Assembly: GCA_963664225.1 (NCBI GenBank)
Contig: OY760937.1
Coordinates: 4,576,001-4,640,000, forward strand
Direction of reading: 5' to 3'
Length of the DNA stretch: 64,000 nt
From: Verrucomicrobiia bacterium
GTDB lineage: Bacteria > Verrucomicrobiota > Verrucomicrobiia > Limisphaerales > UBA1319
Shown here: piece by piece, positions 59,810-64,000 of the stretch
Layout of the letters: each line of letters opens with the position of its first letter
Numbering within the stretch: the first letter of the stretch is position 1
Position numbers and translations under genes: made by a program
Notes under the pieces: model-generated
What the model was told of the DNA's origin: nothing
The model's database searches: none
What the model saw: only the letters and a program-made list of their open reading frames with translations

Positions 59810-60700
59810 ATGTTTGCTTTGATTCAACTTGTTAAGAAATGGGGGGAATTTGTGAAATTCTCCCATACGGTGTTTGCACTGCCTTTTGCCATTGCCGCAA
59901 TGGTGGTGGCGTCGCGCGATAACCGTGGCTGGCCCGGTTGGCGCACTTGCGCCTTGATTCTCATGGCGATGGTCTGCGCGCGCACCTGCGCCATGGCCTT
60001 CAACCGGATCGTCGATCGCAAATTCGACGCCGCCAATCCCCGGACCGCCATGCGGCATCTGCCTTCCGGCCAGGTATCGCTCTTGAGCGCCTGCATATTG
60101 TGGCTTCTCAGCGGCGCCGGTCTGGTGCTGGCGGCTTACCTGCTCAATACGGTTTGTTTTTACCTTTCGCCGGTGGCTCTGGCGGTCGTCTGCTTTTACT
60201 CGCTCACCAAGCGGTTCACCGATTACACGCACGTGTATTTGGGCATATCACTGGCACTGGCGCCTTTGGGGGCCTGGCTCGCGGTGCGTGGCACGCTCAG
60301 CCTGAGCGTCGTGGTCCTGGCGGTCGCGGTGGTTTTCTGGTTGATCGGCTTCGACATCATTTACGCCATTCAGGATTACGAATTCGACCAGAAATACAAG
60401 CTCCACAGCCTGGTGGTGGCCTGGGGGGTGGATAATGCGCTCAAAGCCGCGTTCCTGGCGCACATGCTCATGTGGGGATTGCTGCTGGCGTTCGGTTTGC
60501 TTTCACACTTTCGCGTGGCATACTTGTTTGGCCTGTTGATCATCCTGGCGAGCCTCGTGTTCGAGCACTGGCTGGCGCGGCGTCGCAGTTTGAAATGGAT
60601 CAACGTGGCCTTTTTCCGGCTGAACGCGGTCATCAGTGTGGTGTATATGGTGGTCACCATCAGCGAAGTCGTGTTCCCCGGATTCCGTATCACACAATGA
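59810..60700 (+). CDS. UbiA-family prenyltransferase, probably the MqnP type of the futalosine pathway
   Basis: VKFSHTVFALPFA, ARTCAMAFNRIVDRKFDAANPRT, YSLTKRFT, GFDIIYAIQD; ATGA overlap with mqnE. Confidence 0.88.
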   Translation: MFALIQLVKKWGEFVKFSHTVFALPFAIAAMVVASRDNRGWPGWRTCALILMAMVCARTCAMAFNRIVDRKFDAANPRTAMRHLPSGQVSLLSACILWLLSGAGLVLAAYLLNTVCFYLSPVALAVVCFYSLTKRFTDYTHVYLGISLALAPLGAWLAVRGTLSLSVVVLAVAVVFWLIGFDIIYAIQDYEFDQKYKLHSLVVAWGVDNALKAAFLAHMLMWGLLLAFGLLSHFRVAYLFGLLIILASLVFEHWLARRRSLKWINVAFFRLNAVISVVYMVVTISEVVFPGFRITQ

Positions 60701-61821
60701 ACCATTTATTGTCACATTCGGATCTGGGTGATCTGCATGAGAAAGTCGTTGCGGGGGAGCGCATTAACGATGCAGACGCGTTGCGTTTGCTCGAGTGCAA
60801 GGACATCAACGCCGTGGGCGCGCTCGCGGACCTCGTCAACCGCCGCAAAAACAATGGCCGCGCCTCCTATATCGTTAATCGCTACATCAATTACTCCAAT
60901 TACTGCATCCTGAGCTGCCAGTTTTGCGCCTTCGCCAGGAAAAAGCGGGATGCGGATGGTTTCCAGTATTCCGTGCCGGAAATGGTGGAGATGGCGCGCC
61001 AGGCCCTCGAAATCGGCATCACAGAACTCCATATTGTGGGCGGTTTGCACCCGTCGCTGCCCTTTTCCTACTACACGGGTATGTTGCGTGCCTTGAAGGA
61101 CTTGGATGCGCGGCTTCAGCTCAAGTGTTTTACCGCCATTGAAATCCTGCACCTGGCCTGGTTATCGCGGCAAACCACTCAGGAGACGTTGGTTGCGCTG
61201 CGCGAAAGTGGCCTGGATTCTCTGACTGGCGGTGGGGCGGAAATCTTCCGGCCGGAAGTGCGCCGGGCCATCGCCAAGGGCAAGGAATCCGCTGCGGAAT
61301 ACCTTGATGTTCATCGCATTTGGCATCGACTGGGGGGGCGCAGCACCTGCACCATGCTCTACGGACATGTCGAGTCGCTGACGGATCGCGTGGACCATCT
61401 GCGGCAACTGCGTGCGCTGCAGGATGAAACGCATGGATTTGTCGGGTTCGTTCCTCTGGCATACCATCCGGAAAACAACCAGATTCCGGTGCGGCACGCG
61501 CCCACAGGGGCCGATTCTCTGCGCACTATTGCATTGAGCCGCATATACTTGGACAACTTCGATCACATCACCGCCTATTGGGTGGGGCTTGGGGTCAAAT
61601 TGGCGCAACTGGCTCTGAGCTATGGCGCGGACGATTTGCATGGGACCATCGTCGAGGAGAAGATTTTTCACATGGCCGGTGCGGTCACCCCGCAGACCCA
61701 ATCCGCTCAGGGAATGATTCATGCCATCCAGGAAGCGGGGTTCAAACCGGTGCAGCGCAACACGTTTTATGAGCCGGTCGGTGGTGAGACTCCGCGTTTG
61801 CAGGTCGTGGGCGTCCATTAA
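60697..61821 (+). CDS. mqnE: Aminofutalosine synthase (radical SAM, CofH/MqnE family)
   Basis: CILSCQFC; ELHIVGGLHP, KCFTAIEI, GGGAEIF, YGADDLHGTIVEEKIFHMAG favour MqnE over MqnC. Confidence 0.85.
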   Translation: MNHLLSHSDLGDLHEKVVAGERINDADALRLLECKDINAVGALADLVNRRKNNGRASYIVNRYINYSNYCILSCQFCAFARKKRDADGFQYSVPEMVEMARQALEIGITELHIVGGLHPSLPFSYYTGMLRALKDLDARLQLKCFTAIEILHLAWLSRQTTQETLVALRESGLDSLTGGGAEIFRPEVRRAIAKGKESAAEYLDVHRIWHRLGGRSTCTMLYGHVESLTDRVDHLRQLRALQDETHGFVGFVPLAYHPENNQIPVRHAPTGADSLRTIALSRIYLDNFDHITAYWVGLGVKLAQLALSYGADDLHGTIVEEKIFHMAGAVTPQTQSAQGMIHAIQEAGFKPVQRNTFYEPVGGETPRLQVVGVH

Positions 61822-61922
61822 TGGATTGGCTCTGGCGCTCCGGACAAGATTCTTCCGCAATGGGGAGACGCCGCCCAGGACATGGCCTTTTCAAGTGATC
61901 GACCGCGAGGAGGGGATTTTTG

Positions 61923-61971
61923 CGTTCAACCGGTTGACCACCGGTTGACTGCGGTTGACTGCGGTTGAACG
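61923..61971. repeat. Four direct copies of CGGTTGA at 10-11-bp period, bounded by a 10-bp inverted repeat
   Basis: cgttcaac cggttgacca ccggttgact gcggttgact gcggttgaac g; cgttcaaccg and cggttgaacg are reverse complements. Confidence 0.75.
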
Positions 61972-62027: not shown

Positions 62028-62450
62028 ATGAACCCCAGAGTCATCGTCAGGATCGCCGCGACCCTCACCGCATTGTTGGCGGTGGCGGCGCTCGTGGTTC
62101 TGATGGTGGCTGCGGCGCGATTTGTCAGCCAGGAGCCAAACTCGTCCCAGTTCCACAGAAGGCTGGGAGTTTTGGGGCTGTTCGCCATTGTCCCGGTCCT
62201 GTTCATTTGGGCCACGATTCAGGCGTGGCGCGGGACTCCCAAGGGGATTGTTTCGCTGAGTTCGGGGTGGATTCTGTTCGGGCTGGGCGGCAGCATTGGC
62301 TAACTGTTCTGGTTTTTCATGGAGTGGAAAATCCAGGATGCCCTCATGGCAATTATTTGGATTGGCGTATTCCTGTTCGGTGTTTTGATTGCCAGACAGG
62401 AAAACAAAATTGTGCGCCCGACCTCCCGCAGTAAACCAAGCCAGCCATGA
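62028..62450 (+). pseudogene. Small 4-TM membrane protein interrupted by an in-frame TAA (62301-62303)
   Basis: After ...FGLGGSIG* the same frame continues LFWFFMEWKIQDALMAIIWIGVFLFGVLIARQENK... to TGA 62450; the stop lies inside a hydrophobic helix. Confidence 0.6.
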
Positions 62451-62670
62451 TTCCAAAACTCCTCGATGGACTGTCTGTGGCGTGAGCAAAATCCGACTGT
62501 TGAATTCCGGGAGTATTCCAGAACCGACTCCGTCTAATCAGGAGATGAAAACTGAAGTCGTCCTTGTCCGAGCATTCCAGGGATTTTGCAATGATTTTAC
62601 ACCTTTCTGACATTTGTCCCCCTCAAGAACGCAATCAATGTGGACATGAAAAGTCCGCGACGTCGGAACC

Positions 62671-62778
62671 ATGAAACCCAAACTGATCCTCTGCCTCGCG
62701 CTCGTTTTGAGCGACGGGCTGTTCGATTCCAACGCGCAGAGAAAAGACGGGCAAGACGGTCGTCCAGAACCTCTTTGA
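62671..62778 (+). other. 35-codon leader remnant MKPKLILCLALVLSDGLFDSNAQRKDGQDGRPEPL*
   Basis: Translated by hand; 5' end is similar to the start of the ORF at 63103. Confidence 0.55.
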
Positions 62779-62793
62779 TGAGCTGCCCGCGTC

Positions 62794-63090
62794 GTGAAAG
62801 CGATCAACATTTCAAAGATGCAAAAAGCGAGAACACCTTCTTCCAAAAGATACTTCTGGCAACTTGTCATTTGCCTGGCGTTGGGTCTCGTAATGTATTG
62901 GCCGCTTTATCTGGGAGAACTCGCCGCAGCAATTTACATTTATGGCTTCACCGTTGGCGTTTATTTGTTGATTCAGCTATCAACGCGGTTTCGCAATCCG
63001 CTACACGGCGTATTAATCATCTGTGTTTTAGCCCCGATTGCGTTCTACCTGGGCTGCTGCGCGGTGGCTATGGGCGGAATGGGACGTTAG
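62794..63090 (+). CDS. Small hypothetical membrane protein (3 TM)
   Basis: Three hydrophobic segments; GTG 62794 or ATG 62818. Confidence 0.6.
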   Translation: MKAINISKMQKARTPSSKRYFWQLVICLALGLVMYWPLYLGELAAAIYIYGFTVGVYLLIQLSTRFRNPLHGVLIICVLAPIAFYLGCCAVAMGGMGR

Positions 63091-63102
63091 CACAAGCGAA
63101 TC

Positions 63103-64000
63103 ATGAAACCCAAACTCAACCGCTGCCTCGCGCTTGCCTTTGTTGGTGGCGCTGCCTGCATTTACGCCGCCAGCACTCCGCTGGATCGGGTCGCAGCGGA
63201 GCAACGCGAATTGTCCGTGTTACTGGCCAAAGCCAGTCCGAGCAGTTTCGGCACTAACTCGCCGGACTTGTCCCGCCGTGACGATAATTTTTCCCCCTAT
63301 CTCACCAGGGCAGAGAACGAGCGGTTTGTCCAATTGCTGCGCGATGCCGAAATATCGGCGGCGGTAACGCGTGAACAAGCACTGGCTGCGGTTAAGCAGC
63401 GGCAACTTGACGAGAACTTGCCGGGTTTCCAGTACAACGCTTTGATGGACCTCGTCAATCGAAGATGGCCGCATGATGAAGCAGTGATTGGCTTTTATCG
63501 CGACGCGTTGGCAAGGCGCGGCGAAGTGGCAATCTCTGATTTGTTTTCTCCCACTCCGGGCATTTGGGATGATTCGTTGCTTGAGCCGGTCATCGCAGTG
63601 ATTGAGAAGGCTGGCAAACCGAACCAAGTTCATTGGAACGTTGTGGACCACGCGCTCGCCGTGCTCGACCGTCATCACTCCGTTTGGGAAACGAATACCG
63701 CGATTCCTCCGCGGCTGAGCAAAGCTGTGTTGGCGATGTTTCCCTCCTTGACGAATACTGCGGTTTCCGGCCCGCGACCAGGCGAGCAAATGTGGTGCTA
63801 CGCCCTGCAAATGCTCGCAAAGACCCACGACTCTGAAATGATCCCGGTGCTGCGGCCGTTTTTGACGAACAAAGGGATGGCGGGCGATGGCTGTTATTGG
63901 ATCGTCGAGGCCAATCCGCCATTACGGGCTTGCGATAGAGCGGCCATCACAATCAGACAGCTCCTCGGGGAACGGAACTCCGTTGAGCCAATCGGAATGC
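63103..64000 (+). CDS. Exported hypothetical protein, helical/HEAT-like, 3' partial (absent from the ORF track)
   Basis: Translated by hand, open to the window end: MKPKLNRCLALAFVGGAACIYAASTPLDRVAAEQ...MIPVLRPFLTNK...LRACDRAAITIRQLLG. Confidence 0.75.
   Translation, partial: MKPKLNRCLALAFVGGAACIYAASTPLDRVAAEQRELSVLLAKASPSSFGTNSPDLSRRDDNFSPYLTRAENERFVQLLRDAEISAAVTREQALAAVKQRQLDENLPGFQYNALMDLVNRRWPHDEAVIGFYRDALARRGEVAISDLFSPTPGIWDDSLLEPVIAVIEKAGKPNQVHWNVVDHALAVLDRHHSVWETNTAIPPRLSKAVLAMFPSLTNTAVSGPRPGEQMWCYALQMLAKTHDSEMIPVLRPFLTNKGMAGDGCYWIVEANPPLRACDRAAITIRQLLGERNSVEPIGM

Follow-up and report, generated by a model that had tools for sequence, protein, structure and literature searches.

The stretch of DNA analysed here (the window) comprises 64,000 nucleotides and corresponds to positions 4576001-4640000 of the single contig of 5,783,426 bases (G000:C1) that represents the genome of a soil Verrucomicrobiia bacterium. 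Close to its 3' end begins an array of co-oriented open reading frames (ORFs) that contains repeated copies of one short coding sequence, the leader, which is predicted to specify the beginning of a signal peptide and which is followed by unrelated genes. The array is 5.3 kb long, lies between mqnE and a convergent gene for an AI-2E transporter, and includes seven leader junctions. The window contains its first part, and five of the seven junctions are found beyond position 64000, where a first-pass annotation of this DNA had proposed to look for further units. The genome stretch around the window end is denoted L001, and its coordinates are converted into window-equivalent coordinates by adding 60,999; the ORFs of the array are labelled A to I in plus-strand order.

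The upstream flank is the housekeeping gene mqnE (aminofutalosine synthase; 60700..61821, on the plus strand like all features of the array), which lies outside the array and was identified with NCBIfam TIGR03700 (448 bits, cut-off 434.55). It is followed by ORF A (62028..62303), which encodes a hydrophobic protein of 91 amino acids (aa), has a weakly leader-like start and is without a Pfam match above cut-off. Leader copy 1 (62666..62730, i.e. bases -5 to +60) is near-canonical, encodes MKPKLILCLALVLSDGLFDS and has up to 94.5% identity over 55 bases to copies in other genomes. It opens stub B (62671..62778), an ORF of 35 aa that consists of the leader, 15 further codons and a stop, and thus represents a leader heading no full-length protein any more. 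Behind the stub, the hydrophobic ORF C (62794..63090, 98 aa) has its own start codon. Leader copy 2 (63098..63134) is consensus-like for about 32 bases and then divergent (MKPKLNRCLALAFVGGAAC), so that it matches copy 1 at 35 of 48 bases; it opens cassette D, an ORF of 405 aa for a predicted exported protein, of which the first 299 codons lie in the window (63103..64000) and which ends at 64320.

Beyond the window, the ATG of cassette E (64317, 366 aa, MKTNFLCLALVLSGGVFDC) overlaps the stop codon of cassette D in the sequence ATGA, and the next junctions belong to cassette F (65419, 94 aa, hydrophobic), to G (65700), where the leader is interrupted after 35 bases by the ATG of G2, a membrane ORF of 141 aa, and to cassette H (66157, 129 aa, MKPKITLCLALVLSGVLLGC). 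At the last junction, I (66543), only 14 leader bases remain, and they are joined to the mid-part of an alpha/beta hydrolase, which matches positions 139-261 of 332 of the RcgR-family profile and 52-164 of 217 of Abhydrolase_6. The ORF (L001 5544-6044, i.e. 66543-67043) is devoid of roughly the first 138 residues of such a hydrolase and looks like a resident gene that was truncated as the array formed or grew. The G+C content of the array is patchy, from 0.48 to 0.615 per ORF, compared with 0.56 for the genome. Pfam and NCBIfam gave no match for A, C, D, E, F, G2 and H; leads in a protein atlas to HEAT-repeat-like proteins for D and E had scores of 0.82-0.86, under the acceptance level of 0.9. 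For A, A2, C, F, G2 and I, the other loci contain no relative at E<=1e-4, and cassette D has 31 relatives at E<=1e-5, with N-termini that extend from the canonical leader to signal peptides that have diverged.

The repetition of the leader clearly exceeds the expectation for random sequence. In the window, ATGAAACCCAAACT is present without mismatch at 62671 and 63103 on the plus strand, and when up to two mismatches are allowed, four window matches are found, compared with a mean of 0.45 in 100 shuffles, none of which reached four. The exact 14-mer occurs four times in the whole genome of 5,783,426 bases, always on the plus strand and within 3.9 kb (window-equivalent positions 62671, 63103, 65700 and 66543), and a genome-wide search at the protein level found starts of the M[KN]..LCLAL type in this form only at the array locus. 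The copies at 62671 and 63103 are identical at 29 of 32 bases (read by eye) and diverge afterwards, one leading into the 35-codon stub and the other into the 405-aa ORF, as the first-pass annotation had described. The co-orientation of the window ORFs that it reported is likewise found, and the ORF at 63103 begins 12 bases past the preceding stop. It had also named two weaker copies. That at 62028 does match the 62671 copy at 16 of 21 bases, but at only 26 of 48 over the longer range, and 16 of 21 is reached by 25 of the 197,539 genomic ATG sites, 19 of them outside the array, so that the resemblance is borderline; that at 62447, with 11 of 15 bases (counted by eye), lies below the threshold of 12 of 15 that 100 genomic ATG sites reach, and its resemblance is at chance level.

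The majority sequence of the leader translates to MKPKLILCLALVLSGGLFGC, which has a basic start and a hydrophobic stretch. Signal peptides of lipoproteins have a basic n-region, a hydrophobic h-region and a lipobox with a cysteine about 15-25 residues from the start. Because MKPKLILCLALVLSGGLFGC fits this rule, the leader is predicted to represent the n- and h-regions of a lipoprotein-type signal peptide. A cysteine at residue 20, after L-F-G, is present in 40 of 120 copies; in many copies the lipobox is replaced by ends that resemble Ala-X-Ala, and only the first 15 residues or so are kept. In the genome under study, the LLGC copy at L001 5158 alone fits the lipobox well.

The conservation of the leader extends to silent sites. 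In the copies at hand, which were collected by nucleotide similarity (an exact 25-mer, then at most 10 changes in 48 bases) and the apparent conservation of which is inflated by this procedure, per-base conservation is 0.9-1.0 from base 17 to base 42 and drops after base 45; upstream it is limited to positions -5 to -1 (AAACC), and none is seen from -60 to -6. At consensus residues the codons are nearly invariant (CTC for Leu7 in 112 of 113, TGC for Cys8 in 103 of 104, GCG for Ala10 in 102 of 110, GTT for Val12 in 102 of 106 and TTG for Leu13 in 115 of 117 copies), and those for which usage was determined are non-preferred codons in this genome (CTC 0.24, GCG 0.35, GTT 0.19, TTG 0.21). Identical residues are encoded by the same codon in 859 of 953 cases (90%) within leader codons 1-15, compared with 5389 of 9357 (58%) within the payloads, i.e. 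the genes behind the leader, of 98 homologous pairs. A degenerate, codon-neutral pattern returned the same codons as the collection based on similarity.

This codon-neutral pattern was run on 401 genomes of the same order and found 13 sites in five of them, which belong to five different families. Four of these genomes have several matches, which are clustered and co-oriented, and the fifth has a single match; alanine is encoded by GCG and cysteine by TGC in 13 of 13 sites each (counted from the listing). Within the family of the genome under study, neither the same-genus genome nor any of the eight others matched the pattern. The exact core 25-mer was found in 54 stretches of the genome_contigs collection, the titles of which almost all name Verrucomicrobiia, Limisphaerales or Verrucomicrobia subdivision 3 from soil, bog or palsa, and a few short contigs in otherwise-named bins are taken to be mis-binned. 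The metagenome_contigs collection contributed more than 159 stretches among the matches listed. No exact match to the 25-mer is present in viral_contigs, and carriage of the leader by phages was rejected on this ground. A fuzzy scan that tolerated up to 10 changes in 48 bases and demanded a start codon yielded 120 distinct copies at 48 loci and 162 more at 73 metagenome loci, which together with the leaders of D, E and F, added by hand, make 285 distinct copies. Thus, with seven junctions in this one array and 285 copies in relatives and metagenomes, the leader goes far beyond a local duplication of two copies.

The densest array has 10 leader copies in 9 kb (L074). Array flanks are housekeeping genes, e.g. 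serS, glgA, aroC, ribD, carB, recQ, uvrB, proS, argF, mfd and pgm. Of the 280 flank ORFs in other genomes, 148 were scanned against Pfam, and this scope applies to all statements below about genes beside arrays. Some arrays in other genomes lie near genes of mobile-element type (HipA toxin kinase, TraI/AAA_30 helicases, RadC, HepT; for example at L038 5815-10025 and L062 6578-7978), and most do not.

The proteins behind the leader are diverse. The 99 payloads of at least 70 aa fall into 56 BLASTP clusters, 36 of which are singletons, and the 23 payloads with Pfam matches represent unrelated folds: serpin, GDSL lipase, alginate lyase, alpha-L-fucosidase, M14 peptidase, pectate lyase, PL4 rhamnogalacturonan lyase, GxGYxYP, BspA-type leucine-rich repeats (LRR), tetratricopeptide repeats (TPR), Sel1 and HEAT repeats, WG repeats and beta-propeller. 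The profiles of the D and E families can be aligned over the leader region only (probability 90%, 75 columns). The copies therefore do not lead to homologous payloads, an outcome that would have spoken against a shuffling array.

The cassettes are tightly packed. Upstream of 115 of 123 leader copies, an open frame of at least 60 codons on the same strand ends within 90 bases; in 49 of these 115 the frame is terminated by the TGA contained in the ATGA of the leader, and in 85 it overlaps the leader ATG or leaves no more than 15 bases before it. Stubs, in which a stop follows within 40 codons, make up 39 of the 145 complete leader ORFs of the metagenome set. They form recurrent classes in which the sequence that follows the stub is conserved and is often a gene that has a separate start codon. 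Mismatches in bases 16-45 average 1.71 in stubs (n=55) and 1.99 in intact leaders (n=215), both classes being biased towards conserved copies by the similarity-based detection. A separate observation concerns a conserved promoter-like element of about 41-47 bases (GAAATGAACGAACTGG..GTCAGAGTTACAAT), which ends 4-9 bases before an ATG and is found at 33 distinct places in the fetched loci (minus-strand examples are L032 4482-4528, L085 3447-3493 and L148 4029-4069), with none in the genome of the window. It is often found directly behind a terminator-like hairpin or behind a leader stub that ends at base 45. Of the 285 leader copies, 8 have it in the 80 bases before them, and it also precedes a recurrent gene for a small membrane protein; to judge from its spacing, 5' untranslated regions would be very short or absent.

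Gain and loss of cassettes at leaders can be followed in other genomes. In the first of two pairs, two contigs of one long-contig metagenome-assembled genome have a common cassette of 249 aa (98.3% identity over 807 bases) on one side and a leader with a stub (94.3% over 141 bases) on the other. On one contig a serpin cassette of 410 aa lies between these flanks; on the other they are joined by a single hybrid leader, the first 17 bases or so of which resemble the serpin leader, and which from base 30 on resembles the stub leader, placing the crossover at bases 18-29. The left edge of the shared cassette lies inside the leader of that cassette, with 6 differences in the first 31 bases compared with about 1% beyond. 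In the second pair, a cassette of 632 bases (209 aa) is present in L139 and absent from L088; identity is 97.3% over 525 bases in one flank and 93.6% over 2932 bases in the other, and a hybrid leader has its crossover at bases 25-29. These pairs provide direct evidence that the leader is a recombination junction.

The ends of similarity between loci point in the same direction. In 107 non-redundant matches between 163 contig groups (at least 90% identity, at least 200 bases), 144 of 341 internal end points (42%) lie within -10 to +70 of a leader, leader windows being 5.8% of the sequence (a value computed on the redundant set), and 72 of the 106 matches that have an internal end have at least one at a leader. 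Array content also varies at defined chromosomal positions. In four genomes with arrays flanked by uvrB (93-96% identical), one, one, two and five cassettes are found, and those nearest to uvrB do not belong to any shared family (by eye). Likewise, a single cassette lies between rpe and pgm in one genome; its identity with a copy from a genome of another family is 78% over 512 bases, and in a third genome rpe and pgm are adjacent. In the same-genus genome G001, only mqnE matches (73% identity), and it is followed by an ORF of 295 aa and leuA, with neither an array nor the AI-2E gene (L080, G001:C143, 1810-4221). An invariant locus, the remaining outcome that would have spoken against a shuffling array, is thus not what is seen.

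It is proposed that cassettes are exchanged by leader-to-leader recombination, most likely homologous, and that this yields a variable accessory secretome; a probability of about 0.58 is given to this explanation. Each cassette would open with a leader of about 45-60 bases that provides the start codon, the basic n-region and the hydrophobic h-region, in the full form also the lipobox (LFGC). Because the leader is the only sequence that cassettes have in common, recombination between two copies would delete, insert or swap entire cassettes, and the moving unit would consist of the 3' part of one leader, the payload and the 5' part of the next leader. Such exchange would produce hybrid leaders at the joints, and imprecise events would produce leader stubs. 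Ordinary homologous recombination on 30-45 identical bases could delete cassettes between direct repeats, and excised circles or imported, transformed DNA could be re-inserted by a Campbell-type event; such an exchange would also explain both the co-orientation and the fact that the stop codon travels with the payload. The result would be an accessory secretome that is drawn from a cassette pool common to many genomes, and the array of the window would have arisen in the same way. The gene-capture or shuffling array postulated in the first-pass annotation is supported by these comparisons: the idea of the leader as recombination junction gains its support from the two indel pairs, and the likeness to integrons is confined to the outcome.

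The preference for a homologous mechanism follows from the variable positions of the crossovers and from the lack of a recombinase linked to the arrays. Crossover bounds were derived from pairs with at least 93% identity on one side of the leader and different sequence on the other; the crossover lies at or before base 17 in one event (two pairs), at bases 18-29 and 25-29 in the indels, at or after base 19 in two events, at or after base 45 in one and at or after base 57 in others. These bounds conflict, so that one fixed crossover point is excluded unless several of the differences are later mutations. The 11 Phage_integrase matches in the genome are all about 690 kb or more from the array, no recombinase, integrase or transposase family was found among the 148 scanned flank ORFs (of 280) beside other arrays, and the sequence upstream of -5 is unconserved, in line with the earlier remark that neither an attC site nor an integrase is visible.

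Two further candidates for a mobile structure were rejected. The leader does not behave as a miniature transposable element: its flanks are unconserved on both sides, and no target-site duplication was seen by eye at the edges of copies. The array is bracketed by two copies of a dispersed intergenic repeat of about 90-105 bases, which contains the perfect palindrome TCAACCGGTTGA, followed by CCACCGGTTGAC; the left copy of about 90 bases, including the palindrome, lies at 61867-61956 and the right copy just past the array at L001 6216-6304 (67215-67303), with 85.6% identity over 90 bases between them. At least 20 further partial copies were found genome-wide by BLAST, so that the repeat is not array-specific and was discarded as an attachment site; it could be an element of the repetitive extragenic palindromic (REP) kind or an operator. 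Farther downstream, a gene for a protein of 523 aa with PRC-barrel and BON domains contains internal tandem repeats of about 123 bases (L001 9165-9542), neighbouring units of which are 85% identical over 257 bases.

It should be noted that several points weigh against the proposed exchange. The direct evidence for the leader as recombination junction comes from other genomes and not from the locus in the window, and a comparison of states before and after array formation is lacking at mqnE because G001 is not syntenic downstream of this gene. Six public sequencing runs contain the array stretch or a part of it, and four of them were compared over L001 1-8000 at the level of contigs. Two runs from two studies have one contig each that covers L001 1-6127 with 0 differences, and they may include the source sample of the genome; two runs contain only 0.55-0.66 of the words, and many of their contigs continue into unlike sequence. 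Contigs of public runs showed neither leader joints nor interpretable loose ends at leaders at this locus, a negative result from material that cannot reveal rare variants. Many of the contigs used for comparison are assemblies of short-read metagenomes, which are prone to chimeras at repeats; this genome and the first indel pair are on long contigs, unlike the second pair. For efficient recombination of the RecA type, a homology of about 45 bases is short. To these points is added the inflation of leader conservation by the way in which copies were collected: the starts of 22 relatives of cassette D that were found via the payload span the range between the canonical leader and diverged forms, e.g. 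MRRKMILSLALAMSG, and the most distant relatives have unrelated signal peptides, from which it follows that the leader decays in some lineages.

The uniformity of the leader is also open to more than one explanation. In L035 and L073, the leader core is perfectly conserved and the payloads differ at a third of the synonymous codons, a pattern that fits selection on the sequence as well as cassette flux. Leader differences within and between contigs are 2.81 and 2.83 for bases 1-18, and 3.32 and 2.83 for bases 19-45. A permutation test showed no excess similarity within contigs, and local concerted evolution, or array-specific leader variants, was therefore rejected, so that local gene conversion is not the cause of the uniformity. 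Flux through a cassette pool and selection on the sequence are both candidate causes.

A bolder version of the proposed exchange is possible and is put forward tentatively. The arrays might form a recombinase-free 'secretion-tag integron', in which a translated leader of about 45 bases would be export signal and portable homology at once and would serve a community-wide pool; it would be held constant by the need for recombination, i.e. by molecular drive, and not by protein function. A gene that lands behind a leader would at once be exported and be exchangeable between loci and genomes.

Selection is the core of the best-surviving alternative, according to which the leader is kept as a regulatory or translational element in the mRNA or as a DNA binding site, and the arrays arise by duplication and transfer; breakpoints would be found at leaders merely since the leader is the sole shared homology. 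Its conservation is indeed equally strong between and within genomes, the single-copy syntenic genes in L035 and L073 keep it despite synonymous divergence of the payloads, and the promoter-like element of 41 bases before some leader genes in other genomes suggests a common expression module. Nevertheless, this alternative appears unlikely. Rfam gave no match at E<=1 over L001 800-6500 and the folding of 5 leader copies was not better than that of shuffles (z +0.27 to -1.80), on which grounds an RNA element was rejected; stubs, which have no protein to regulate, are conserved as well as intact leaders; and the many decayed leaders in the payload-sampled D family imply that the sequence is not needed for export. 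Regulation alone also leaves the identical leader on unrelated folds unexplained, and recombination is needed anyway. The two readings are compatible and do not exclude each other.

A site-specific system, in which the 29-base core (bases 17-45) is the recognition site of a recombinase encoded elsewhere and the arrays are the counterpart of integron cassette clusters without an integrase of their own, is regarded as improbable. It would account well for the sharp edges of the core, a small inverted repeat within it (CGCTC-5 bases-GAGCG, by eye), the retention of the core in stubs that encode nothing and the fact that both mapped indels permit a crossover at bases 25-29. However, a crossover at or before base 17 is incompatible with crossovers at or after bases 19 and 45 if a single point is assumed, and no recombinase family was found among the scanned flank ORFs (148 of 280), the nearest tyrosine recombinase in this genome being about 690 kb away. 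In addition, an attC-like palindrome is lacking, folding energies are not better than those of shuffles, and the 3' ends of the cassettes are unconserved.

Chimeric joins at a repeat of 45-60 bases might also mimic cassette exchange, since most metagenome contigs are from short reads and contigs of public runs break near leaders (L001 2100 and 2129). Such an artefact is very improbable given that this genome is one contig of 5.78 Mb with 7 junctions, that arrays and the first indel pair are on contigs of 374-650 kb, and that the two runs mentioned above each reproduce L001 1-6127 with 0 differences, with the reservation that they may include the source sample. The remotest alternative, tandem duplicates of one ancestral lipoprotein gene with mature parts diverged beyond recognition, would agree with the co-oriented, tandem arrangement and with the weak HEAT-repeat-like leads for D and E (0.82-0.86, below 0.9), but is already contradicted by payload folds without common ancestry (serpin, lipase, lyases, fucosidase, peptidase, LRR, TPR, WG), by synonymous sites that are near saturation in the payloads and not in the leader, by D and E profiles that align over the leader only and by the case of I, in which a leader is joined to an internal part of an alpha/beta hydrolase (139-261 of the 332 profile positions).

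If leader-to-leader exchange is the correct explanation, bacteria can assemble and reshuffle their set of exported proteins as whole genes, with the signal peptide as the joint and no dedicated mobile-element enzyme nearby. This would explain why one identical export signal is found on unrelated enzymes, inhibitors and binding proteins in the Verrucomicrobia of peat and soil, which are abundant and poorly cultured. The leader would then be a simple sequence tag for a variable secretome in metagenomes, and it would offer a natural case of conservation at silent sites, the cause of which may be recombination rather than protein or RNA function. A full-text search of the literature, judged from the beginnings of abstracts, returned no account of the leader or of a comparable system. 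Four known types of systems share some of its properties.

Conotoxin superfamilies and peptides of the prochlorosin type combine a conserved leader with a hypervariable short core of common origin. As in these families, the part coding for the leader is conserved even at silent sites and the remainder is highly variable. In contrast to them, the payloads are complete proteins that are unrelated to each other and reach 850 aa, and leader recombination is visible.

In the vsa, vsp and vpma loci of Mycoplasma and the sap locus of Campylobacter fetus, inversion switches a single expression site among silent or inverted genes that belong to the same protein family, and a recombinase is usually encoded next to the locus. 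They have in common with the present arrays that exported or surface proteins have a conserved 5' end, including the signal peptide, which is the site of rearrangement. In the arrays described here, however, all copies are co-oriented and have an ATG of their own, no recombinase was found among the scanned flank ORFs, the folds are unrelated, and cassettes are gained and lost instead of being switched.

The orphan toxin-immunity modules of contact-dependent growth inhibition (CDI) and Rhs systems are exchanged by homologous recombination at a short conserved coding stretch. In both cases a conserved coding piece in front of variable modules provides the homology, and truncated orphan copies stand in co-oriented rows. 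Unlike CDI and Rhs loci, the array has no large toxin gene upstream, the upstream gene being mqnE, and toxin-immunity pairs are absent: the Pfam matches of the 99 payloads and of the array ORFs include no toxin or immunity family, a result obtained without a toxin-specific search. The cassettes are complete genes that each have a start codon, they encode enzymes, inhibitors and binding proteins, and the conserved piece is a predicted export signal.

Integron cassette arrays, which include attC clusters without an integrase, are characterized by IntI, which is a tyrosine recombinase, attI and a structured attC at the 3' end of the cassettes, where attC is an imperfect palindrome that carries inverse-core and core sites. 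The resemblance is considerable: as in integrons, mostly promoterless, unrelated genes are co-oriented and tightly packed, a short repeat is found at every cassette boundary, the content varies among close relatives, and the pool is common to many genomes. On the other hand, no integrase of the IntI type and no attI lie next to the array, the 3' ends of the cassettes have no attC, crossover positions vary, and arrays are found at many chromosomal sites. The repeat itself, which in integrons is a structured 3' element, is here a 5' coding sequence that is conserved in sequence and not in fold and is translated as part of a predicted signal peptide.

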